DNA of 64,000 bases from a virus (lineage: Duplodnaviria > Caudoviricetes), in IMG/VR virus record IMGVR_UViG_2974594805_000001, positions 1 through 64,000 of that record. One strand, written 5' to 3'. This document shows, piece by piece, positions 27,724 through 55,747 of this stretch. The stretch's first letter is position 1. Each line of letters begins with the position of its first letter. The notes under the pieces were generated by a model that was not told the origin of the DNA, searched no databases, and worked only from the letters and a program-made list of their open reading frames with translations. Made by a program: the position numbers and the translations under genes.

Positions 27724-27863
27724 CCATCATCGCCATCACTTCGACCGTTACCTTCGGTCTGGTGATTTGCGGCCTCATTATGCAGGCCATCAACTACGTT
27801 CGCATCAGCAAATACGAACGTGAAATCAAAGGACTGATCAATGATCTTCGTCTTCGGAAGTAA
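27720..27863 (+). CDS. 47-aa single-TM protein
   Basis: TTG overlapping the previous stop; TM plus basic tail; below the track cutoff. Confidence 0.4.
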   Translation: MTIIAITSTVTFGLVICGLIMQAINYVRISKYEREIKGLINDLRLRK

Positions 27864-28257
27864 CAAAGCAGGCATCCACGGTGCGGGTGCTGCAAAATAT
27901 GCACTCGAACATGAGGGTGCAGTGATGGGTATTGGTGAGGGTATCGTTGGCAACAGCTATGCTCTCCCAACCAAAGGACACAAGATCGAATTCATCCCAC
28001 TCAGTGAGGTGGAACATTCGGTCACACGGTTCATCGAAGTCGCTGAATACTGGGCATTACGCGGGGGCGAGTTCAAAGTGACGCAGGTAGGGTGTGGTCT
28101 TGGTGGTTTCACCAAAGAACAGATCGCACCGCTGTTCAAACCAGCACCTGACAACTGTTACTTTGATGAGGAATGGAGACCGATCCTCGGAGACCGCTTC
28201 AAATACTGGGGAACTGTACCCAGTGACCCGCGTCTCAATACGAGATCGGTATTGTGA
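27841..28257 (+). CDS. Macro-domain-like phage protein
   Basis: IFVFGSN..G.HGAGAA, G.SYALPTK, VTQVGCGLGG; resembles macrodomain loops. Confidence 0.6.
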   Translation: MIFVFGSNKAGIHGAGAAKYALEHEGAVMGIGEGIVGNSYALPTKGHKIEFIPLSEVEHSVTRFIEVAEYWALRGGEFKVTQVGCGLGGFTKEQIAPLFKPAPDNCYFDEEWRPILGDRFKYWGTVPSDPRLNTRSVL

Positions 28258-42542: not shown

Positions 42543-42759
42543 ATTCTTTGGAACATTGATCGGAACGATGGGTGTAATCCTCGCCCTGATCATCGTCGCA
42601 ATCATTGGAGTAGCCGCTGTCTTTATCGGCTACTTCCTGTTGTGGGGCTTCATCGGTCTCTGCATGATCGGATTCATCTGGTTCCTGATCTGGGCTGCAA
42701 TCGACGAATGGAAACAACGTCCTCGTCGAAAGCATGACCCAGATGATCCCGGACCTTAA
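42532..42759 (+). CDS. Small membrane protein
   Basis: 75 aa with about 50 contiguous hydrophobic residues; its stop overlaps the vRNAP stop in TTAA. Confidence 0.65.
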   Translation: MLTKFFGTLIGTMGVILALIIVAIIGVAAVFIGYFLLWGFIGLCMIGFIWFLIWAAIDEWKQRPRRKHDPDDPGP

Positions 42760-45700
42760 TCCGACATCAGGTTTACCCACGGGTTGAGTTCAGGTGCTCC
42801 CCAAAGCATCTCATAACCCGTGGCGTAATCCATCCGACCCTCACCGATCACAGTGAAGATGTTATCCTGAATAGGAGAACCAGTATCTGTGATCGAGTTC
42901 AGGGCCATGGCACGGAACGGGTTGTTACGCATCTGCTTTGCAGCAATCTTGGCAATCCGGATCTTGAAAGCCATGAACCAAGAAAGACCATTACGCTCAA
43001 GCATAGAGCGTGTACGACCGGGCAGAGCACTGAAGTTCACAAACTCTTCGTTCATGACACGAATGGCTGCCACAGGGTCCAGACCCTGATCTAACAAGTG
43101 ATCGTAGTAGATTGATTTCGCAAGGAAATCCCCATACTGCGTAGCCCGGTTAGCAGCCCGATAGAGATCTGTGGACTTACTCACCATACCAATCTTCGCA
43201 ATGTTACCCAGAGTGTCTGGGAGTTGATCAGCCTTGCTTTCCAGCCAGTCTGCAAGACCACCATTGGTCTGAGCACGATCAAGATCAGTGATACCTTCTG
43301 ACAGTTGCTTGTACGCACCAGCAGCGATCATCGGAGCAATGGACATCTTCGCATTCAGATCATTGATCACTTGGATCTTGTCGTCGATCAGACGCTGACG
43401 ACGAGGATCCTGTGTCATACGACGCTGGTTCTCAAGCTCCTTGAGTTTCACATCGTTCTTGTTGAACTCGGTGATCTCAGCCAGCTTCTTCCGATAGCCC
43501 TGAACAATCTTCTTGTTCGGGACACCATTGGTGGACAACTGGATGATGTTGGCTTGGGTGTTAGCCACCGGAACCACGAGAGACTTCACAACAATGATGT
43601 CCTTGGCATCGGATACGATACCTTGGAAACCCTGTTCAGCCTGCACCATGAGAGTACGCAGAGACTTCTGTCCAAACTGCTGCCGTGTGACAGCCTGAAC
43701 GGTCTTCACAAGCTCTTTAGGCATCCGGGTCTTACCGGTCCAGAGATCAGCCACAGACGCCTCACGGTAGCCTACGCTGAGGTTTACCATGGATTCCATG
43801 ATCATTGGTCCCTGACCATCAAACTTGCTGTCCATGTAGCTCTTGATCTCATGAGGGATCAGCTTGAACGACTCTTTGTAGATCGGATCAGTGGTGGTTT
43901 TCAGGTTCACAAACTGATCATCAGTTCCAGTCTCCCGGTTCTGCCACATCTCATCGAGCTTATCGACCAGAGCACGGTTGTATTCGTAGGCCAGAGACTC
44001 TTCCACCTGACGACCAGCCCATGCACCAAGGTTCGTAGCGAGGTTCTCGTCACGTCCCAGCAGAGCCTCAGACAGCACAGGATTCACAGACCGTTCAAAG
44101 CCTACGATGGCACCCTCACCATCAAACACAGGCATGAGAGTCTCGTTCGGATCCTCCAGTTCATAGGAATCCAGCACCAGTTCCTCAGCCACTTGGTTCA
44201 CCACATCCTCACCAGAGATGAAACCAACAGCATCTCCAGTCACTGTGAGGCCCGTGTTTACGTCTACCCCACGATAGGTGGACGACACGTTCTGCATCAC
44301 ACCCTGAGAGTATGCACCCTGCTGGGAGATATTGGTGACGTAGTAGGAGCGAGGGAAGGCGTTGTTCACATCACCAGTGAACGGAGCAACCTTCTTGTAT
44401 CCACGATGCAGCATATCCTCTTCCATGGAGTCCTCAGCCACTACGATACGATGGTTCTCTCGTCCCACATTGGGCAGATATCCTTTGTAACCGTTCAGAC
44501 GTGCAGCTTCTCCGACAGCTTTAGCGTCTTCCTGCTGGTTCAGATACTGCATGTAAGCGATCATCGGACGGATACCGTCAGCATCGTTCTGCCACAGTTG
44601 TACGGTAATTTCCCGTACATCAGCATCCATCGTGTCGATGGCATACATTGTGATCAGTTCATCAATCCATTCGACAACCTGATCAGAAACATCACCTTCG
44701 AGGTTCTTGGCGATGGCATATGCATTGCGAACCAACAGCTTACCGACAGACTTCTTGTTCATGAAGTCAGCCAGTTGCTGGGCTTTCTCTTTCATGTCGT
44801 TAAAGTTCGACGGAGACAGCACACCCTGAAGCTGGTTCTCAAGGATCGAGATCTGACGACGACGTGCAGCACCTTCTTCCAGCATCTGTAGAGACGGCTG
44901 AAGGTTGTTCACATCGACATACCGGGTGAAGTCAGTGTTCCCCAGTGTACGCTGCATAGACGCCCACTGCTCAGGGACAGGAGCTTCCCGGAATTGACGA
45001 TTGAAGATACCCGGAAGCTGTTCCCGGTAGCCCTGACGCATACCAGTGACCTTAGCGTTCACCACGTCCATCATGGCCACGACTTCTTCATTGTCTTTGT
45101 TGGTTCCCACGAATTCGTCCACCAGTTCACGGACAGGAACCATAGACAAGATCGGAATACCTGCATGAGCAGCACGTTGTGCAGCCTGACCAGTCAGTGC
45201 AGTACCAGTATCGTCGAGGAAGTTCGTGATGAATGTCACAGACGACGTAAGGTATTGTTTCATCGAGCCTTCTTGCTCGGCTTTCACCTGAGCATCAATG
45301 TTCCGCATACCTACGGCAGCCTTCTCGAAGCGATTAGAGATCAGGTTATCTGCTGCATCCAGAGTCTTGGTGACTCCACGGAGCACTGCATATTCCTTCT
45401 CGTTGTTGGCTTCGATCAAGGTCTGCTTGAGACCATCAAGAACCTCTTGAGGAGCACCATCTTGGATCGACCCCATGAGTTTGCTCATGAAGATCTGAGT
45501 TCCACGATGCAGATAGCTGTTCAAAGTCCCAGTTACCTGCTGAGTTTCAGGCTCAGGAATCTGTGCCACAACATCCCGAAACTTCTGAGAAGTCTGCTGA
45601 AGAGCAAACATCACAGCCACAGCGTCAGAAGTATCACCCCGTTTGAAACTACCAAACGAGTTGATCACAGCAGAGTATTCGTTACCGGCTTCTGAACCAG

Positions 45701-48700
45701 AACCAAACATCTCAGGAGTCATGTTCTCTTCGACATGCTGGAATACTTTTGTCAGTGCAATCAAAGAGTTCGGATCGAGAGTCATCTCAGACTTCATGAT
45801 ACCGTAGATGGCACGGAAGGTCTGACGATCTTCAGGATTACGAAGCATCCCAGCCTGACGAAGACTGTCGATCACAGCATCTGCATTCAGGATATCCTGT
45901 GCAGTGTCACGACGACGACGTGTACCGGTAGCATCATCTCCCAGTCCGTCGATGTATCCAACCAGCTTCTCGATCCAGTAGTTCGTGTAGTTGTTGGACA
46001 TTGGGGTCAGATCCCCACCGTCTCCAGAACCACCATCACCATTGCCACCACCTCCAGTCACATCATCCAACGGAGGATCAATGATGATCTTGGTGTTGAA
46101 TGCAGTCTGAGTGAACATATCCCGAGAAACCCCACCCATCAGACGACGCATCAGAGCAATCAGTTTCTCACCGATTGCCTGAAGAGGTGTGGTTTTCTCA
46201 GCCTTACGACGGACCTGAGAGTTTGCCAGCACGTAAGCCATGAATTCATTCACAGCCATAGCCTGACGTGTCGGATCTGTCTGATTGACATGCCGTAGTA
46301 TGGCAGCCTGAGCATCACGCACAGTCTGTCCACCATCCTCAATCTTGAGGAAGTCACGCATCAGGGACTCCATACGAGTCACAGCAGCCTGACGATCTCC
46401 ATTGTAGTGGTTCTCTACACGTTTGAACGTAGCAGCATGAACCATCTCATGAAGCACAGTCTCAGGCTTGTCCGTCGTCAGATACACGATGTCATTCACA
46501 TGATCGTATGCACCATTGGCATCGGTCATGATTGCACCGTTGTCTGGGTTGTTCTGTGTTTGCCAGTCACGGATTTGATCCACAGTCCCCAGCACCACAC
46601 GAGTCTCATCAGACAGACCCGGCATGATGATATCCAGAACCTGTTTCTGTTTGGCGGTAAACCGCAGAGATTTCAGGAATGCATCTGCTTTGGTTTCGAA
46701 TACCTCAGCACGAACATCTTCCTGTACCTCTGCGGGTTTACCTTCCATCTCACGCGCAATCAGGACATTGAGTTCTGTGAAGCCAACTTCACGACCTTCA
46801 CGAGTGTAACCGACATCGGAGCCACCCATCTGATCGACGGATGCAGCTACAGTCTTGAAGACAGCCTTTCTTGCTTTGTTGGCAGCCAGTCTCTGATCCA
46901 ATTGTACCATCAGATCGGCTACATTCGAGGCGGTGACTGAAGATTTTTTGTTTTTGTCCATAACCTTTTGATATGCTTGAGAAAGAATATCAGCATCGAC
47001 ATCCGAGTTGATGAAACCACGGAAGTTTTCCACAGCCATAGACATCACATCACGCTGCCAAGTCTGTGATACAGCTTGGTTCACACGAGGTGCATAGTCT
47101 TGGATCTTGGACAGAGGAATATCCAAACCATCGAAGATCCCCAGTACGTCGTCAGGTGCTCCCTCTGTGCCGAAGATGTAGTTCATCATCATGGCGTCGC
47201 CTGAACCAATCACAGAGAATGGGATAGACCGAACACCCACGTCGTCAGGAAGACGCATGTAAGCGAAGTCATTGATCTGCTCATCGAAGTTTGACGATGT
47301 ACGGATCAGACCACGACCTTTCTGGAAACCACCAATCGCAAGAGTCTGGTCATCTGACACGAACAAGGGGGCCATCTGACCCAGTTCAAGCTCAAGCTCC
47401 CGGAAATACTTCCGTGGGATCTGAGACAGATTCTTTTTACTCTTGATGATACCTTCGTTTTCGAGCCGTTCAGCCAGTTCATTGAGACGAATCTCGTAGA
47501 TGTCACGCAGATACTGAGACTGAACGTTTGTCGAGAAAACCATCAGATCATTGAATTCATTGATCTTTTCACCGATCACCTGCTGAGTTGCCTCAGTCAG
47601 AGTGTCACCAATAGTGTACTGGATCCGGGTCCGGAATTTCTTGATCGACTCTTTATCGAAGACCTTCGAACGGGACGGCTTATCGTCAATGATAAGACCC
47701 ATGGTTTCCATGTCTTTCTTGAAACCCGGATAGAAGTATTCGTCCACAGGTACTTCCGGAGGACGTTTCTGCATCTCTTCGTAGAACTTCAGCATCATGT
47801 CATCTGCCACACCGACAGCAACACCACGAACACCAGAGCCATAGTTCACCTTGGTCATTGGGTTCTTAGAAGAGTTACGGCTCATGGTAATGACACCAGA
47901 CTCTTCGTCGATATCGAAGTTCCCGATAGTCGCAGCCAGACGCACAGCAGCACCACGCTGCTCTTGCTGCCATGGTTCCAGACCTTTCATGTTGCCCAGC
48001 ATCTTGTCACCCAGACGAGACACGGTTTCATACATGTCAAGTGAACCAGCTTTCGCATAGTATTTGTTGACGGTTTCACCCATCTTCCCAATGAAGAAAC
48101 CCACTTTCTGGAAGTTGGAATAGTCTTCCGGAGTCAGTTCACCCTGACCGAAGTTCACCATCATGTTGGCAACACCATTGGTCAAACCATCAAGCTCAAA
48201 GCTCAGGCTTGTATCAAAGGTTGATGCACCATCTTCCACTGCCATCTCAAGCTGAGCGACAGCGATGATTGCTTTCAGTTGCTGAGGTTCGATCACTCCA
48301 GTCGTTTCGAACAGAGCATCTTGATCTACTTCTCCAGATCGAATCAGGTTTTTGATATGCGGAACTGCATCACCAAACTTGGCATAGAACTTCTCAGACG
48401 CATTGGCGATGATGTCTGCGTGTGAGAGTTTCTCAGCCTTGTTGATGCCACCGATGTCAGATGCCTGACCCACAGCGATCCAGAAGTTATCCAGATCAGT
48501 CACGTCCACAGTGCTCCATGTAGGAGCCACGACAGCACGCATGACTTTGTTGGACTGGGGGTTTGGTCCCTGAGCCTGATGACGACCCACCTTGGTGATA
48601 CCATAGGGGAAATACACAGGCATACGGTTGCTGGGATTACCAGCAGCAGACAGGAGAGCCTGAGTCTCAGCAATGTTCATCTCGATAGACAAGTTTTTGC

Positions 48701-51700
48701 CACGAATAGAACGCTGAAGAACTGGGTTCGGGTTGTTGTCCACAGTCTCATCGTAACCAAACAGACGACGTAGATTCTCGATACCAGAGAACACAGTGGC
48801 AGCCGCAGCATCCACATAGTTCGGAGTATCCTGCATCTTCTGAAGAGCTTTACGTTCAACATCAGACAGTTGCACACGAGTACGATCCTGTGTCCGAGCC
48901 ACAGATGTGAGTTTCTCACCCACAGCGTAGATCGGAGCACTGTCACCAAACAACACTTCCTTGGCTGTCAGTTTCTTACCCGGTCCATTCTCTGCACGAG
49001 TAGCATCCCGGATCTCACGCATCTCACCGTTGTTGACGATGATTGTGAAGATATCACGATCACCTTCTTCACGAGTCGTGGTGACTTTCTCCACCGATAC
49101 GAGATCTGTGTTCTCACTCAGAGCAGTGAACAGTTCTTTGGCAAAGCCCTGCATCGTACCTTCGAGATCATCCACAGCAGACTCTGGATCTTCTTCAATG
49201 TCGAGCAGACGCATCAGATCAAAGGCCAGACCATCACCAGCTTGGTTAGGCGGAACACCATTCAGGATGGAGTTGAAGTCCCCATCGTTTATGTCGTTCA
49301 CAGAAACTCCAAGTTTTTCAAGGGTTTCTTCCAAGCGGTTCGGATCAGAGCCTGTGTTGGTCAGCAGCCAGTCAGCCATAGCCACAGCAGCCATGTCGAT
49401 GACACGATCACTGAACTCACCGGTCTCAGGATCGACCAGCAGACCAGCTTTGAAGCGACGGAATTGAGTACGACCATCAAGGATGTGCTGACGGATAGTC
49501 TTCGTCACGCCACCATCTTTGACCTTCTTGTCGAGACGAGCACTGAGAGACTCAGCAATGACAGGACGCAGAGACTTCACAAACTCTTTGGTTTGAGAAT
49601 TGAGTGGAGAACCTTCAGTAACTGTCAGAAACTCACCCAAGTTTTTCGGATGAGCTTCTGTATCTTTGGCTTTGAAAAAGCTGAAGAAAGTCGGGTTTAC
49701 TCGGTAGTCACCGGATTCGACCTCGCTCCCAGCGTCTTCTGCTGGGGTGGTGTCTCCGTCAACATCTCCTCCGGTGTCCCCATCTGTGTCGGGCTGTTGT
49801 ACTTCCGTTTCGGATACTTCAGTGGCAGTTCCAGTTGCTTCGGTTCCGATGAGATCGCCATATACATGCTCCAATACTGCTGCGGTTTCAGAGAGATCTC
49901 CCTCGATAACCTCAGTGGTGAAGGCCATCTCAGTGGCCACAGCAAACAGTTCCGAAGAGATCTGCTCCGGAGTACCACGAGTGAATGCATACTCCAATCG
50001 ACCATTGAAGTAGTTGCTGAGGTTTCCACGCAACGCATTCATTTCGTTGAAAACTTTTCCACCTTTGAAGAAAGTACGTGCCGACGACACAGGCATATCC
50101 CCATCAGGATTCCTATGGTTGTCAACGATGTGACCCACTTCATGTACGAGGACTGCACGACCCTGTGCTGTCAACTCTTGGTTTTCATCAAACAGATCTT
50201 CCCGCATACGAACTTCACGAGTATCGAACACAGCACGTCCCAGATCATTGGCACGAGCAGGCATCACATTCAGTACACGCACAGCAGACGCCAGAGGACC
50301 GAATACCAGCTTCATCTGGTTCCGGGCATTGTCACGACGTGCCTTGAGAGTCTCACGCATACGAGCCTTCTCAGCGTCTGTCATTTGATCGACAAAATCA
50401 TTCCATGGGAGAGTAGCATCAAGCTCGGACTCCTCCGTCTCCGTAGACCCTTCCTCAGTCGCTGTCGCTCCTTCGTCAGATTCTACGGCCCCGTCGGACC
50501 CCTCGATAGTCTGCGAGCGTTCTTCATCACTGAGAGTCCCATCGACATCTGTGTCGAGTTGAATGATCTGATCGTTGGACTCAGCAATGATCATTCCTTC
50601 GTTCTCATTGAACAGAAGGATACCATCATACCGACCCTCAGCCTTACGCTGTTCAAGTGTCAGAGCATTGGCAAGCCAGAAGTCCTGTGGATCCATGCCA
50701 TCCGGAACTTGTTCCGACAAAGGATTCGCAAGACGGACATTCATACTGATTAGACGAGGTGTACCAGTCCCATCCCCACGAGCGAACTCACGAGCCAGAC
50801 CCTTACGAGTCGTCAGGAAAATACCTCCATCCCGGAACTCAGAGAATACTGCATTGGTTCCATGGTAGAAGGTAATCGGATCACCATTCTCATCAGAGAT
50901 GATATCGTCTCCGTTGATCTCCATCGGGGGATCTTCACGAGTTATACCATCATCAGTTACATCTGTATTTTGACCCTCCTCAGAGACGGCTGGGGCCGTC
51001 TCTTCGTCGATAGTCTCCGAGGGGTTTGTTTCCACGGACGAATCAATGTCATTACGGGGGTTTTCTGTTTGTATTGTTTCTTCTGCTCGGGCGTTCGCTT
51101 CGCCCTCGATAGCCGTTGGGCTGTCGTTTTCCTTACGCAAAGTGACTGGAACCACCTCAGACAGACCTTCGAAGATCTCCGGGAATTCCTTTTGAATTGA
51201 GGCCAGTACGGTCTCTGCTGTCCGGGTGTCGTTCTCGACCTGTTGCGCAAATGCAACACTTCCCGGAGCACCACGGGAATAACGAACCGGAGCAAAGTAG
51301 TTGTCCGGAGAGTCTTTGTCATAGAAACGTTCACCGTTGGCCAAACCAGAGAACTTCACAGTCGGACCAGACAGTTGACCTGTCTTCGGATTGACAAAGT
51401 TATTGTCGAAGGACTCATTGAGAGCCTCGATCCGGTTGTTCATATGCTGCACGAAGTTACGAAGACGTTTCACTTCACGCTGCACAGTTGTCTTGTTGCC
51501 TTCACGATCAGTGAATTCCCCAGTCGGAGACTGGAGACCGGTGATGATATTGGCAGCCATATCATTCACAGAAGGCAGAGTCTTACCACTGCGAGTCTTG
51601 AAACCAGCAGCAAGGATAGACCGGGAAGTCTGCTGCACCGACTCTCCTTTGCCGGTGGCTTCGCCTTCGCGTGAAAGAGTGACTCCGTTCGATCTCTCGA

Positions 51701-53795
51701 TCTCGATACGGGAGTCCAAGTTACCGTTGATTGCTCGGCTCACGTTGGAAGCAGCACGAGTGATCTTCAGATCTTGTTCACTGATATTTTCTCCCGACTC
51801 TTCCAAGAGTTGATCGGTACGATCAGGATCGACGTTCGCAGGATTGGTCTTCGCCACGTTCACTGTGGTGGAGACCTCCTGCGGCGTTACCGGACCCGTA
51901 GGGGTATTGGTATTCAGATCGAGTTTCTCAGCATCAGCAAGGATCTTAGTTGCAGTCTTTGACGACAGGATCTTCCCAATACGCCGTTTGGCACCAACAG
52001 GCAGAGATTCTGCCACTTGGCGTAGACGGTTGATCTGGGTAGCAGCAAAAGCTGTATCCTCATCACTGGGACGGAAACCTCGCTCAGACATCTTGGCTGT
52101 GATACCAGCCACAGTCTCAACAACGTTGTTACCTTCTAAACCAGCAAAACCTTCTGACGGAGTATCCACAGTGGAGAGGTTTGCCACGACTTGATCGTCA
52201 AGGTTTCCTTCATCCACCAGAGAAATGATGGTTTCATTGGCATCCAGTGCATCCTGAGACGCTTGTGTAGCATCATTGTTGTTCTCACGAGACACAAAGT
52301 CTGTTGCGTATGCCACAGCAGGACTCTGTGCGACAGTAGATGCAAGGTTTCTGGCTTGCGTTGTGACATTGCCAGCCAAATCACTTGCAGCCTGTGTAGC
52401 TCGCTGAGCAGGTGAAGCTGTTCCTACAATGTCCTGACGCAGAGGATCATTGAACTGAGTCTCAGTGAAGAGAGCATCAGCAGCATTTCGTGCTTGGTTT
52501 GCAATGACACGGCCAGTTGCCGTACCAGTCTGCACAGCCATACGAGGTGAACCAAGTGCAGCAGCAGTACCCATACCTGCCAGAGCACCGATTGCAGCCT
52601 CTTCACCAACACCCTCGAATGTGGCTCGACCAATGTTTGCCATCTCTTCGACAGCAACGTTCCGGTTCACAGTGGCAGAACCACCTTGCAGAGCTTCTTC
52701 AACACCTTCACCTGCAACTTGCAGGAGGTTTTGAGCAATAGAGTTTCCACGGAAAGCAGCAGGCCCCAGAGCTTCAAAGCGATTGGTTACATAACCAAAG
52801 GCAATGGTAGGAGCGATCTGACGAACAGCAGCCGTTTCAGCAGTGATACCAGCCAGTTGTACCCGTGCTTCTTCGGGTGTCATATCCGGATTCTCATCCA
52901 TGATGGCTTGAAATACCGGTGAAGTCTCAGACAGTACCTCGATAGGAACACCCATCACATCCTGCACAGTCTCACTGTAGAGGTTTGTGACTTCAGGAGC
53001 ACCTGTGGCAGCAGAGATGGCCGTAGCTTGAGCCACACGCTGTGCCAGTGCATTCTGGGTCATACGGGCTGTCATGCCCTTGGCTACGGCTCCTGACGCT
53101 CCACCGAGTGGTGCAGTGAAAACCATAGAACCAATAGACTCAGCGATGATGTTCCCTGCAAGAGAAGGATCACGGGTAAACCGTTCCACAGCATTCAGGG
53201 CATCACGACCTTGGTGAGCTAAACCAGCAAACAAAGGTGAATCACCTTCAGCCAGATCTCGCTCGTACTGAGCTTGAGAGTCTGCCCGGTCAAGTTCACC
53301 TTCAATGGCTTCAAAATACCGACGGTCTTGGAGTTCTTGAGACAGATTCTGCTCTTGCATTCCTGCCACGATATCACCGTGAGCAGCCAAAAGTTCAGCA
53401 GATCGACGACGACCACCGTCTAGACCTTCATCGTTCCACCATGCACGAGCATAAGAATCAGCGATGATACCGATTGAACCAATGTCTCGATATGCACCAA
53501 TGGATGCAGACTTGGCGATATCCAGAGCACGTTCACCGAAACCCTGTTCTGCATTATCAGACTGTTGAAGACGATCACGTCCGTCCATCAGACGGTGACG
53601 GTTCATTGCAACCTCGTTGCCATACTTGGCAGCAAGTTCCAGTTGCGACATTTCACGAAGATCTGTGTGAAGTTCAGTCTGAGCTAGGTCATTTCCTCGA
53701 TCTTCAGCGACAGCAGCAATGTCTTGCGTAACGGTATCACGCAGAGATTCCGCAATGATGTCATCGGGAGACGGAGTTCGAGGAGTATCGACCAT
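42756..53795 (-). CDS. Virion-encapsidated RNA polymerase (vRNAP, N4 gp50-like) carrying extra ART-like and zincin domains
   Basis: 3679 aa, no Cys; motifs ELDGLTNG, R..SKNPMT..NYGSG, IFDG; core at about 46830-49700. Confidence 0.97.
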   Translation of the reverse strand: MVDTPRTPSPDDIIAESLRDTVTQDIAAVAEDRGNDLAQTELHTDLREMSQLELAAKYGNEVAMNRHRLMDGRDRLQQSDNAEQGFGERALDIAKSASIGAYRDIGSIGIIADSYARAWWNDEGLDGGRRRSAELLAAHGDIVAGMQEQNLSQELQDRRYFEAIEGELDRADSQAQYERDLAEGDSPLFAGLAHQGRDALNAVERFTRDPSLAGNIIAESIGSMVFTAPLGGASGAVAKGMTARMTQNALAQRVAQATAISAATGAPEVTNLYSETVQDVMGVPIEVLSETSPVFQAIMDENPDMTPEEARVQLAGITAETAAVRQIAPTIAFGYVTNRFEALGPAAFRGNSIAQNLLQVAGEGVEEALQGGSATVNRNVAVEEMANIGRATFEGVGEEAAIGALAGMGTAAALGSPRMAVQTGTATGRVIANQARNAADALFTETQFNDPLRQDIVGTASPAQRATQAASDLAGNVTTQARNLASTVAQSPAVAYATDFVSRENNNDATQASQDALDANETIISLVDEGNLDDQVVANLSTVDTPSEGFAGLEGNNVVETVAGITAKMSERGFRPSDEDTAFAATQINRLRQVAESLPVGAKRRIGKILSSKTATKILADAEKLDLNTNTPTGPVTPQEVSTTVNVAKTNPANVDPDRTDQLLEESGENISEQDLKITRAASNVSRAINGNLDSRIEIERSNGVTLSREGEATGKGESVQQTSRSILAAGFKTRSGKTLPSVNDMAANIITGLQSPTGEFTDREGNKTTVQREVKRLRNFVQHMNNRIEALNESFDNNFVNPKTGQLSGPTVKFSGLANGERFYDKDSPDNYFAPVRYSRGAPGSVAFAQQVENDTRTAETVLASIQKEFPEIFEGLSEVVPVTLRKENDSPTAIEGEANARAEETIQTENPRNDIDSSVETNPSETIDEETAPAVSEEGQNTDVTDDGITREDPPMEINGDDIISDENGDPITFYHGTNAVFSEFRDGGIFLTTRKGLAREFARGDGTGTPRLISMNVRLANPLSEQVPDGMDPQDFWLANALTLEQRKAEGRYDGILLFNENEGMIIAESNDQIIQLDTDVDGTLSDEERSQTIEGSDGAVESDEGATATEEGSTETEESELDATLPWNDFVDQMTDAEKARMRETLKARRDNARNQMKLVFGPLASAVRVLNVMPARANDLGRAVFDTREVRMREDLFDENQELTAQGRAVLVHEVGHIVDNHRNPDGDMPVSSARTFFKGGKVFNEMNALRGNLSNYFNGRLEYAFTRGTPEQISSELFAVATEMAFTTEVIEGDLSETAAVLEHVYGDLIGTEATGTATEVSETEVQQPDTDGDTGGDVDGDTTPAEDAGSEVESGDYRVNPTFFSFFKAKDTEAHPKNLGEFLTVTEGSPLNSQTKEFVKSLRPVIAESLSARLDKKVKDGGVTKTIRQHILDGRTQFRRFKAGLLVDPETGEFSDRVIDMAAVAMADWLLTNTGSDPNRLEETLEKLGVSVNDINDGDFNSILNGVPPNQAGDGLAFDLMRLLDIEEDPESAVDDLEGTMQGFAKELFTALSENTDLVSVEKVTTTREEGDRDIFTIIVNNGEMREIRDATRAENGPGKKLTAKEVLFGDSAPIYAVGEKLTSVARTQDRTRVQLSDVERKALQKMQDTPNYVDAAAATVFSGIENLRRLFGYDETVDNNPNPVLQRSIRGKNLSIEMNIAETQALLSAAGNPSNRMPVYFPYGITKVGRHQAQGPNPQSNKVMRAVVAPTWSTVDVTDLDNFWIAVGQASDIGGINKAEKLSHADIIANASEKFYAKFGDAVPHIKNLIRSGEVDQDALFETTGVIEPQQLKAIIAVAQLEMAVEDGASTFDTSLSFELDGLTNGVANMMVNFGQGELTPEDYSNFQKVGFFIGKMGETVNKYYAKAGSLDMYETVSRLGDKMLGNMKGLEPWQQEQRGAAVRLAATIGNFDIDEESGVITMSRNSSKNPMTKVNYGSGVRGVAVGVADDMMLKFYEEMQKRPPEVPVDEYFYPGFKKDMETMGLIIDDKPSRSKVFDKESIKKFRTRIQYTIGDTLTEATQQVIGEKINEFNDLMVFSTNVQSQYLRDIYEIRLNELAERLENEGIIKSKKNLSQIPRKYFRELELELGQMAPLFVSDDQTLAIGGFQKGRGLIRTSSNFDEQINDFAYMRLPDDVGVRSIPFSVIGSGDAMMMNYIFGTEGAPDDVLGIFDGLDIPLSKIQDYAPRVNQAVSQTWQRDVMSMAVENFRGFINSDVDADILSQAYQKVMDKNKKSSVTASNVADLMVQLDQRLAANKARKAVFKTVAASVDQMGGSDVGYTREGREVGFTELNVLIAREMEGKPAEVQEDVRAEVFETKADAFLKSLRFTAKQKQVLDIIMPGLSDETRVVLGTVDQIRDWQTQNNPDNGAIMTDANGAYDHVNDIVYLTTDKPETVLHEMVHAATFKRVENHYNGDRQAAVTRMESLMRDFLKIEDGGQTVRDAQAAILRHVNQTDPTRQAMAVNEFMAYVLANSQVRRKAEKTTPLQAIGEKLIALMRRLMGGVSRDMFTQTAFNTKIIIDPPLDDVTGGGGNGDGGSGDGGDLTPMSNNYTNYWIEKLVGYIDGLGDDATGTRRRRDTAQDILNADAVIDSLRQAGMLRNPEDRQTFRAIYGIMKSEMTLDPNSLIALTKVFQHVEENMTPEMFGSGSEAGNEYSAVINSFGSFKRGDTSDAVAVMFALQQTSQKFRDVVAQIPEPETQQVTGTLNSYLHRGTQIFMSKLMGSIQDGAPQEVLDGLKQTLIEANNEKEYAVLRGVTKTLDAADNLISNRFEKAAVGMRNIDAQVKAEQEGSMKQYLTSSVTFITNFLDDTGTALTGQAAQRAAHAGIPILSMVPVRELVDEFVGTNKDNEEVVAMMDVVNAKVTGMRQGYREQLPGIFNRQFREAPVPEQWASMQRTLGNTDFTRYVDVNNLQPSLQMLEEGAARRRQISILENQLQGVLSPSNFNDMKEKAQQLADFMNKKSVGKLLVRNAYAIAKNLEGDVSDQVVEWIDELITMYAIDTMDADVREITVQLWQNDADGIRPMIAYMQYLNQQEDAKAVGEAARLNGYKGYLPNVGRENHRIVVAEDSMEEDMLHRGYKKVAPFTGDVNNAFPRSYYVTNISQQGAYSQGVMQNVSSTYRGVDVNTGLTVTGDAVGFISGEDVVNQVAEELVLDSYELEDPNETLMPVFDGEGAIVGFERSVNPVLSEALLGRDENLATNLGAWAGRQVEESLAYEYNRALVDKLDEMWQNRETGTDDQFVNLKTTTDPIYKESFKLIPHEIKSYMDSKFDGQGPMIMESMVNLSVGYREASVADLWTGKTRMPKELVKTVQAVTRQQFGQKSLRTLMVQAEQGFQGIVSDAKDIIVVKSLVVPVANTQANIIQLSTNGVPNKKIVQGYRKKLAEITEFNKNDVKLKELENQRRMTQDPRRQRLIDDKIQVINDLNAKMSIAPMIAAGAYKQLSEGITDLDRAQTNGGLADWLESKADQLPDTLGNIAKIGMVSKSTDLYRAANRATQYGDFLAKSIYYDHLLDQGLDPVAAIRVMNEEFVNFSALPGRTRSMLERNGLSWFMAFKIRIAKIAAKQMRNNPFRAMALNSITDTGSPIQDNIFTVIGEGRMDYATGYEMLWGAPELNPWVNLMSD

Positions 53796-53857: not shown

Positions 53858-55747
53858 TCATTCAGCACGAGAACGACGTTGTTCAACGTCTGCAATCTGC
53901 CCAGTGATGTTGTTCAACTGAGTTTGCAGTGCTCGATACTGTGCAGAACCTTCCGGATACTGAGCCAACTGAGCACGGATAAGCTGTGCTTGGCTCCGGA
54001 GAGAACCCAGTTCCTGTTCCATAACCTGCACAGAACGTTGGCTTTCACGGAAGTCACGTTCATCACGCTGGTCGATAGTACCAATGATCTCGTCGATACG
54101 GTCTCTATCGAAACGATTCGACAGAGTGTTCCGACCCGAGGGATCACGCTCAAAGCCACGAACAAAGGCAGCAGCAGCAACTTCAGGACGAACGTTGTTC
54201 CGACGTGCAGCGTCTTCGATCATACGATCCAGTTGGTTCACGTCAAAACCAGACTCACCAAATCCAAGGATTGAAGTTGGGTTTTCAGGATCTGAATCAA
54301 GACCAAGACGATCAGCAACATTCTGACCAACAGTTGAAGTATCAGTGGCAGCCAGACGATCTGCATCAGCGAAGACTGCGAACCGTGGGTTTGCTTCATT
54401 GGCTGCATTTGCAGCTTCCACAGCACCTTCGACCAGAGCAACAGTCTCTGGATCCTCAGATACGTTGGGACGAAGACGACCCGGATCCTGTTCAATCAGA
54501 CCACGGAGAGTCTCATACCGTGCCTCGTTTTCAGTTGCTGTGAAGCGATCATCAGCAAAGGTAGCACGACGAAGATCTTCAATCGTGTTGATCTCTGGAT
54601 TGTCCAGAAGTTGTTGGTTCGCAGTTGCTGTAAGCTCTTGAAGAGTCTCGTTATTTCGACGAGTTTCCAGTTCCAGCAATTCAGCAGAACGCTGTTCACC
54701 TGCTTGCTGAGCACCAGACAGAGCAGCATCAATCTGATCAGAGCGAAGACCAGCAGCAAGAAGCTGTTCTCGTGCCTGCATCATTGGTGTGGCGATCTGA
54801 ACACCGTTACCACCACCTTTTTCAGACGACCACTCACGGAAACGTCCCACATTCATGTTACGAAGGAATGGATTGGCTTCGATCACATTGGCAGGAAGAA
54901 CATCAACCAGACGAGTATCATCTGATTGTGTCAGCACAGACCGTGCTCCACCCAAACCAAGGAAGTGAGCAGCATAGAGATTGCCCTCAGTAATCGGAAT
55001 GTTCGAATTCTGAAGACCTTGCATATTCACTTCAGTAAAGCGACGCAAAGCACGTTGAGACTGAGCCGGGTCAGTACGACCATCAGCAGTCAGACCCAGA
55101 TCAGGGTGATCACGCATCATCTGTTGCCATGTCGAGTCAATGAATTGACCCAGACCAGTAGCAGAAGACCGTGGGTTTCGTGCATTTGGATTACCACTAG
55201 ACTCAGATTGAATGGTGGCTGCCAGATAGTTTTCGAAAGCATCACCACCAGTCTGAGTGATTGGGCCAACCACATCACCATGTTCACGACGGAATTGCTG
55301 TGATTCTTGGATCAGACCAGCAGCAGCACGAAGTGCTTGGTCATCAGAATAAGCCTGATCCCTCAGACGGTTAGCGTCTGCTTCTTGTCCTTGAGCAATA
55401 GCCAGACGACCATCACGGTTCCCGATGATCGAACGGTCATTCATGAAGCCCAGTGTTGCAGCACGCTGTCCCAAGAGACGTTCACGCATACCATCAGAGA
55501 TCTGGAGATCACTCAGACCACCACCAGCAAGGAATGCATCCAGTTCAGCTTCATCATTGATGCCTGCCAAACGGTGTGCAGCCTCTGCATCACCAGCAGC
55601 TTCACGACCTGCTTGGTAACGGCCAAGAATGTCACTCGCAGCATTTGCAGCGTTGTTGAAACCCTCATTGGCCTGCCGAAGCAGAGGAGCCACATTGGGC
55701 TGTGCGGTTGCGAGTTGCCGCCATTGAAGTCGTGCGTCACGAGTCAT
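53858..55747 (-). CDS. Virion/ejection protein with lytic transglycosylase domain (N4 gp51-like)
   Basis: IQSESSGNPNA, ATGLGQFIDSTW, LYAAHFLG.GGA; Cys-free; synteny. Confidence 0.85.
   Translation of the reverse strand: MTRDARLQWRQLATAQPNVAPLLRQANEGFNNAANAASDILGRYQAGREAAGDAEAAHRLAGINDEAELDAFLAGGGLSDLQISDGMRERLLGQRAATLGFMNDRSIIGNRDGRLAIAQGQEADANRLRDQAYSDDQALRAAAGLIQESQQFRREHGDVVGPITQTGGDAFENYLAATIQSESSGNPNARNPRSSATGLGQFIDSTWQQMMRDHPDLGLTADGRTDPAQSQRALRRFTEVNMQGLQNSNIPITEGNLYAAHFLGLGGARSVLTQSDDTRLVDVLPANVIEANPFLRNMNVGRFREWSSEKGGGNGVQIATPMMQAREQLLAAGLRSDQIDAALSGAQQAGEQRSAELLELETRRNNETLQELTATANQQLLDNPEINTIEDLRRATFADDRFTATENEARYETLRGLIEQDPGRLRPNVSEDPETVALVEGAVEAANAANEANPRFAVFADADRLAATDTSTVGQNVADRLGLDSDPENPTSILGFGESGFDVNQLDRMIEDAARRNNVRPEVAAAAFVRGFERDPSGRNTLSNRFDRDRIDEIIGTIDQRDERDFRESQRSVQVMEQELGSLRSQAQLIRAQLAQYPEGSAQYRALQTQLNNITGQIADVEQRRSRAE

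Follow-up and report, generated by a model that had tools for sequence, protein, structure and literature searches.

An ART-PolyVal ADP-ribosyltransferase domain in the virion RNA polymerase of an N4-like roseophage

The virion RNA polymerase (vRNAP) of an uncultivated N4-like marine phage (a roseophage) carries an ADP-ribosyltransferase (ART) domain of the ART-PolyVal family, inserted between its N-terminal domain and its polymerase core. We identified this domain in a 64,000-nucleotide stretch of DNA (the window; positions 1 to 64,000 of IMG/VR record IMGVR_UViG_2974594805_000001), the source record of which is complete at 76.5 kb. Judging from its sequence, the domain is probably an active ART on flexible tethers that is carried into the host by the vRNAP and mono-ADP-ribosylates a host macromolecule early in infection, as T4 Alt does. 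That some N4-like RNA polymerases carry a fused, NAD+-dependent ART domain, and that such a fusion might act as an Alt-like carrier, was already published by Iyer et al. 2017 (PMC5512222).

Organization of the vRNAP

The vRNAP gene is located in a late, minus-strand structural block, and its product was divided as follows:

42756..53795, minus strand: virion RNA polymerase gene, encoding a polyvalent carrier protein of 3679 aa (open reading frame list, translation and Pfam)
51138..53795, minus strand: N-terminal domain, aa 1-886, common to other N4-like vRNAPs (PHROG 2206)
50895..51137, minus strand: acidic linker 1, aa 887-967 (30% D/E, 19% S/T; unaligned in ART-less relatives)
50553..50894, minus strand: ART-PolyVal ADP-ribosyltransferase domain, aa 968-1081 (Pfam PF18760, AlphaFold2 model, ART-fold neighbors)
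50421..50552, minus strand: acidic linker 2, aa 1082-1125 (36% D/E, 30% S/T)
49776..50420, minus strand: N-proximal zincin metallopeptidase module, MP1, aa 1126-1340, with HEVGH at 50130-50144 (motif, Peptidase_M90 matches)
46536..49598, minus strand: polymerase core, about aa 1400-2420 (Pfam vRNAP domains; 78% identical to vB_SupP_AX and 24% to N4)

In Pfam searches with the 3679-aa open reading frame, vRNAP_dom matched aa 2188-2324 (E = 7.6e-44), vRNAP_dom_2 and N4_RNAP_helical were also matched, and identity to N4 gp50 was 24-28% across the polymerase and C-terminal parts. The N-terminal domain, which ends at FPEIFEGLSEVVPVTL (aa 871-886), matched PHROG 2206, 'virion RNA polymerase', over profile positions 16-817 (E = 5.5e-174). 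A preliminary description of this DNA had quoted a segment beyond that point as ART-like; the segment is present as written, and positions 50553-50894 of the minus strand translate to aa 968-1081 of the vRNAP. The D/E/T-rich linkers said to bracket it are indeed acidic, with a D/E share of 30% (aa 887-967) and 36% (aa 1082-1125) as compared to 15% for the whole vRNAP. HExxH modules occur at two places in the protein, aa 1218 and aa 2449, the second of which corresponds to the C-terminal metallopeptidase described in N4 by Iyer et al. (PMC5512222).

Domain identity and predicted fold

The Pfam profile ART-PolyVal (PF18760; curated gathering cut-off, 31.2 bits) matched aa 968-1077 with 36 bits (E = 1.4e-8) over profile positions 1-130 of 140. 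When the whole phage genome was searched in six frames, this profile matched a single place (E = 1.2e-11, 41.5 bits), and the same profile search matched 0 of 14 control genomes. A match of this strength lies far outside what chance would produce. When 1.84 billion representative proteins were searched exhaustively, 174 relatives were recovered at E<=1e-3, almost all of which are very large proteins and many of which contain multiple copies of the domain, up to 18 per protein. The family HMM, built from the 150 matches listed among these 174 relatives, covers 609 domain copies. The column make-up of these copies gives the order YHGT, G-x-[YF]-F-T, NPL, [G]YDG[IV], QIK, with which the motif order given in the preliminary description (YHGT, GxYFT, NPL, GYDGI, QIK) agrees. 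That description had also named the domain as an ART-PolyVal member of an 'H-Y-E' clade; the family holds, but its third catalytic residue is Asp rather than Glu, which makes it an H-Y-D family within the HY-[EDQ] clade. The domain resides in a large multidomain phage protein with a zincin metallopeptidase, which is the context expected of ART-PolyVal domains: polyvalent proteins of phages or conjugative elements, most often ones with a zincin. A search for proteins of similar length returned no stand-alone ART homolog, and neither single-sequence nor profile searches returned a sequence relative in the PDB.

An AlphaFold2 model of aa 958-1091, constructed with an 18-sequence alignment, had a mean pLDDT of 93.2 and a pTM of 0.86. 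Comparison of the model to the PDB using Foldseek gave no match at E<=1e-3; the best was MbcT (6fkg, E = 6.6e-3), and the top rows belonged almost purely to the ART superfamily (MbcT, tankyrases, PARP4, diphtheria toxin, exotoxin A, ParT, Tpt1 and AcrIF11). Realignment of the Foldseek candidates using VIA gave a Z of 7.6 for PARP2 (rmsd 4.5, 107 aligned). PARP2 also ranked first in an unbiased VIA scan of 48,161 PDB chains (cluster representatives; Z 7.3, rmsd 4.1, 107 aligned), with PARP1 (Z 6.8), exotoxin A (Z 5.8) and diphtheria toxin (Z 5.6) as further neighbors and ART-fold proteins filling nearly all of the top 43 rows. Since all of these Z values are below 8, which is middling by the tool's own scale, the structural support comes from the near-purity of the hit list, taken with the sequence profile, rather than from any single score. 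A fold check of this kind had been suggested in the preliminary description; with the profile above its cut-off and the neighbors nearly all of ART fold, the model supports a predicted ART fold (split beta-sheet core) for aa 968-1081. The Pfam profile, the family HMM and a confident model with ART-fold neighbors thus agree in supporting these residues as an ART-PolyVal domain.

The best structural neighbors, PARPs and toxins of the diphtheria toxin and exotoxin A type, share with the window ART an HG[TS] motif on strand 1 and an aromatic residue on strand 2. They differ in that the window ART has Asp in place of the catalytic Glu, is a minimal core of ~115 aa and lacks a regulatory helical domain.

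Active-site residues and selective constraint

Iyer et al. described the polyvalent-protein ART family, a part of the Tox-ART-HYD2 clade, as having His on strand 1, Tyr on strand 2 and Asp on strand 5 (PMC5512222). In the model of the window ART, the corresponding residues lie within or at the beginning of strands 1, 2 and 5, if a short N-terminal strand is left out of the numbering:

50862..50864, minus strand: codon of His978, the predicted NAD+-binding His in YHGT on strand 1 (model strand E19-24)
50817..50819, minus strand: codon of Phe993 in GIFLT on strand 2, where the family description has Tyr (model strand E35-38)
50625..50627, minus strand: codon of Asp1057, the predicted catalytic acid in YDGI at the start of strand 5 (precedes model strand E101-105)

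These positions are highly conserved. His occupies the 978 column in 543/568 family copies (96%) and Asp the 1057 column in 529/546 (97%), Gln is found at the 1076 column in 92% of copies, and the combination of His, aromatic residue and Asp is kept in 460 of the 504 complete copies. The literal strand-2 Tyr is replaced by Phe993, which retains the aromatic character; across the 569 copies with this column, Y (209; 37%) and F (201; 35%) are followed by W (88; 15%). All three residues are unchanged in 10/10 vRNAP-borne copies examined. Phe993 is therefore not a defect of the window copy, as Phe is present in all ten, including the prototype of the family. Position 1004 is Phe in the window and Y or F in most family copies, and its distance from 993 is presumably the one that separates the two tyrosines stacking on nicotinamide in diphtheria toxin (54/65) and in PARP1 (896/907). 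Certain well-conserved, non-catalytic columns are off consensus in the window ART: 1019 (N; usually Y/F), 1072 (E; usually F) and 1078 (I; usually K).

The ART domain is under strong purifying selection. Comparisons to vB_DshP-R7L and L010 gave a dN/dS of about 0.08 (pN 0.13-0.14; pS about 0.7, with synonymous sites saturated), which indicates that the domain is maintained as protein.

The family, designated ART-PolyVal or 'N4-like/N4-ART', has as its prototype the vRNAP of Roseovarius Plymouth podovirus 1 (RPP1; CBX87992.1) (PMC5512222). The two ART domains belong to the same family, are both carried by an N4-like vRNAP in the slot between N-terminal domain and polymerase, and share the His, aromatic and Asp residues, yet they are only 30% identical; for comparison, the window ART is about 77-80% identical to that of Dinoroseobacter phage vB_DshP-R7L. 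At strand 2, Tyr is given in the original account (PMC5512222), whereas the vRNAP-borne copies examined here, RPP1 included, carry Phe.

Distribution and mosaic history

Searches by tblastn with the polymerase core identified 236 phage records. The ART segment identified only 17 vRNAP records, all of them from roseophages, plus two unrelated polyvalent proteins, and a second tblastn with the ART of the RPP1 prototype revealed no ART-bearing vRNAP outside of roseophages. By Pfam, the ART-positive vRNAPs were those of vB_DshP-R7L, RD-1410W1-01, DSS3phi2, EE36phi1 and RPP1. Ten representative metagenomic vRNAPs bear the domain at the same position, some of them with quite divergent polymerases. 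The preliminary description suspected that the domain was missing from the N4 vRNAP and proposed an alignment across relatives as a check for lineage-specific insertion. Both points were borne out: the vRNAPs of N4, DFL12phi1 and vB_SupP_AX yielded no ART by Pfam or by the family HMM (filters off, E<=10), and the domain is a lineage-variable insert and not a universal part of vRNAPs. Window aa 935-1125 are opposite only 29 residues in Sulfitobacter phage vB_SupP_AX (AX), the nearest isolate, and the PHROG vRNAP profile skips from position 817 to 842 over the ART stretch. Since close relatives do well without it, the ART domain is dispensable for polymerase function.

N4 gp50 has homologous N-terminal, polymerase and C-terminal regions and is encoded in the same late-gene neighborhood, but lacks the ART and any detectable MP1 counterpart. 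The AX vRNAP is 78% identical to that of the window in the polymerase core and C-terminal region and is its sister in the polymerase tree, although it lacks the ART and its MP1 is only 32% identical. The nearest relative differs from segment to segment:

aa 1-500: RPP1, 56% identity
aa 501-886: AX, 68% identity
ART: vB_DshP-R7L (R7L), about 77-80% identity
MP1 zincin: EE36phi1, 58%, and R7L, 57% (AX only 32%)
Polymerase core: AX, 78% identity
C-terminal region: AX, 78% identity

In the polymerase tree, the window and AX are sisters with 100/100 support. In the MP1 tree, the window groups with R7L, DSS3phi2 and EE36phi1 (96/97 support), and an AU test on MP1, for a group chosen after the identities were known, rejected window plus AX (p = 0.008). 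The ART alignment of 124 columns showed no conflict with the polymerase topology; it is too short to contradict the polymerase tree, and we draw no conclusion of ART transfer from topology. Identities are nevertheless discordant: R7L and the window share about 77-80% in the ART versus 48% in the polymerase, while R7L and DSS3phi2 share 48% in the ART versus 76% in the polymerase, which implies that modules were exchanged or that one lineage accelerated sharply. The AU test on MP1, the clean insertion/deletion relative to AX and these discordant identities together provide the evidence for a separate history. The GC content of the region is unremarkable.

ART and MP1 also vary independently among vRNAPs: RD-1410W1-01, L010 and L011 have an ART without MP1, and AX and DFL12phi1 have MP1 without an ART. 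In 7 roseophage vRNAPs, MP1 keeps its H-E-x-x-H and, downstream, an acidic ligand motif (E-x-F-A...E) without variation, and 4 of these 7 members match Peptidase_M90 (best E = 2.3e-8). Weak profile matches to the MtfA structures 3dl1 and 9srw were also obtained; a scan of viral contigs provided no further MP1 relatives.

Proposed role and alternatives

We infer the enzymatic activity of the ART, its injection, its processing by the zincin and its target, and propose the following scheme. The domain would be a compact transferase of about 115 aa whose active site is an H-F-D form of H-Y-D; acidic linkers tether it in a variable slot, with the N-terminal domain on one side and, on the other, the M90-like zincin ahead of the polymerase core. 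Packaged in the capsid, N4-type vRNAP enters the cell together with the first DNA, and the ART would therefore be in the cytoplasm before any phage gene expression; packaging and delivery of the N4 enzyme were described, and the analogy to Alt drawn, by Iyer et al. 2017 (PMC5512222). Once inside, it would take NAD+ from the host and use it for mono-ADP-ribosylation of a host macromolecule, most probably a protein. T4 Alt, the functional model invoked for the family, is likewise a virion-carried ART delivered with DNA, but it is an R-S-E-clade enzyme without a fused polymerase, and its activity and targets are known from experiment (PMC5512222). The adjoining MP1 zincin may free the ART by cutting the linkers, a step that is speculative because N4 vRNAP is packaged unprocessed (PMC5512222). 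We found no biochemical assay of the ART-PolyVal family in the literature searched, from which papers in subscription journals may be missing.

We also considered genes that might counteract the ART. Profiles for Macro, ARH and NADAR, representing possible eraser or immunity genes, gave no match at E<=1 anywhere in the 76-kb genome. An open reading frame at 27841-28257 was evaluated as a macrodomain (eraser) partner and rejected; it has no Pfam hit and is an N4 gp14-like core gene, and it does not co-vary with the ART, as its homologs are present in 454 phage records, those of ART-less phages included.

Other functions are conceivable for such a domain. It is possible, although we think it unlikely, that it modifies nucleic acid rather than protein (DNA bases or RNA/DNA ends, in the manner of DarT or Tpt1/KptA), and so could label early transcripts or the phage genome as it enters, or put host DNA out of action. 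[quoted passage not shown] However, the structural scores of PARP-type protein modifiers are no lower, and protein targets were favored by Iyer et al. (PMC5512222). Moreover, the family reaches up to 18 copies per polyvalent protein without a polymerase, and its presence in proteins of this type argues against a special tie to transcription. A non-catalytic ART-fold module that acts as a spacer, takes part in packaging or ejection, or binds NAD+ or a host protein would account for the off-consensus columns, for Phe in place of Tyr at both nicotinamide-stacking positions, and for the fact that close relatives function without an ART. Such a role seems distinctly improbable to us, as vRNAP-borne copies only about 30% identical to one another all keep His978, the aromatic residue at 993 and Asp1057, Phe is as common as Tyr at 993 across the family, and selection on the domain is strongly purifying.

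That the best Foldseek match is MbcT, a RES-family NAD+ phosphorylase, and that Xre-RES toxins are also among the structural neighbors, raises the question of whether the domain degrades NAD+ (as an NADase or phosphorylase), lowering local NAD+ or destroying NAD+-derived defense signals. We regard this as very unlikely: PARPs and toxins score level with the RES rows, the motifs are those of the H-Y-D transferase family and not of RES, and the few molecules injected would deplete the cellular pool only weakly. There is still less reason to expect that the ART acts late in the producing cell, on host or phage proteins before packaging, and is a mere passenger after injection. Location of the vRNAP gene in the late structural block would imply many cytoplasmic copies late in infection, but the family is associated with proteins that are passed on together with DNA (PMC5512222), and the Macro, ARH and NADAR searches offered no eraser or immunity gene. 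An early-acting, mono-ADP-ribosylating ART appears to be the most probable function of the domain.

Biological significance

Because the fusion of ART and vRNAP had already been described as the family prototype, the novelty of the present example is low; the window contains another ART-PolyVal member and no new kind of system, and the 'N4-like' ART family was counted among the most frequent viral ARTs in a 2022 survey (PMC9503650). Its additions are modest: a model of the ART fold, the consistent occurrence of Phe at the aromatic positions of vRNAP-borne copies, and the pattern of presence, absence and mosaicism among near-sister roseophages.

A bolder reading, to which we attach little confidence, is that the slot between N-terminal domain and core in roseophage vRNAPs serves as an exchangeable 'warhead' bay, in which ART and zincin are swapped or lost independently of the backbone, and that the ART may act on nucleic acid, or on a host factor needed by the vRNAP, rather than on host RNA polymerase. 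If this were true, the window phage, which has the ART, and its sister vB_SupP_AX, which lacks it, would form a natural pair for target finding. Near-sister roseophages differ by clean presence or absence of the ART, and several such phages have culturable hosts (Dinoroseobacter, Ruegeria and Sulfitobacter); together these phages and hosts may offer a tractable system for target finding and for the study of a possible effector injected on a polymerase.

Domain neighbours of the ADP-ribosyltransferase within the virion RNA polymerase

In the N4-like virion RNA polymerase (vRNAP), the ART-PolyVal ADP-ribosyltransferase domain (ART) is followed closely on its C-terminal side by a second zincin module, here called MP1. 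A further metallopeptidase-like motif lies towards the C terminus.

49776-50420 (-), second zincin module (MP1), aa 1126-1340 of vRNAP; HEVGH with a downstream E-x-F-A...E
46437-46451 (-), HEMVH motif, aa 2449-2453, C-terminal in vRNAP

MP1 was classed by Pfam as M90/MtfA-like in four of seven relatives. Because MP1 is carried also by vRNAPs without ART, namely those of Sulfitobacter phage vB_SupP_AX and DFL12phi1, and is missing from some ART-bearing vRNAPs, the two modules vary independently. The SprT-like match at the HEMVH motif was weak (E 0.0073) and fell below the cut-off, and the motif is probably the counterpart of the metallopeptidase domain that follows the polymerase in N4, as described by Iyer et al. 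(PMC5512222).

Chain B of PDB 9k3a, from the cyanophage A4 pre-ejectosome, is an ejection protein located inside the capsid of this cyanopodophage (PMC12002296). It was one of the best structural matches to the AlphaFold2 model of ART (Foldseek E 7e-3; VIA Z 6.8, 110 aligned). This match between a predicted model and 9k3a may be spurious, given its poor rmsd and an aligned range that covers >1100 residue numbers. A search by term of PMC12002296 found no mention of ADP-ribosyltransferase or ART.

Genomic context and mosaicism of the vRNAP gene

48870-50753 (+), 627-aa open frame antisense to the vRNAP gene, spanning the ART and zincin region
27841-28257 (+), N4 gp14-like core gene (PHROG 2072, E 4.9e-51)
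53858-55747 (-), 629-aa SLT lytic transglycosylase-domain protein upstream of the vRNAP gene (Pfam E 3.1e-7)
52296-53795 (-), N-terminal stretch of vRNAP, aa 1-500

The antisense frame most likely represents a shadow ORF opposite the long vRNAP gene on the minus strand. The gp14-like gene, which had no match in a Pfam search, was rejected as a specific partner of ART because, among the 454 phage records containing it, some have an ART-less vRNAP. The SLT-domain protein is probably a further ejected virion protein; the annotation of its counterpart in Dinoroseobacter phage vB_DshP-R7L reads cell wall hydrolase.

The nearest relative of vRNAP aa 1-500 is Roseovarius Plymouth podovirus 1 (56%), and that of aa 501-886 and of everything beyond aa 1350 is vB_SupP_AX (68-78%). 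This switch between aa 1-500 and aa 501-886 marks an additional mosaic boundary within the vRNAP gene.
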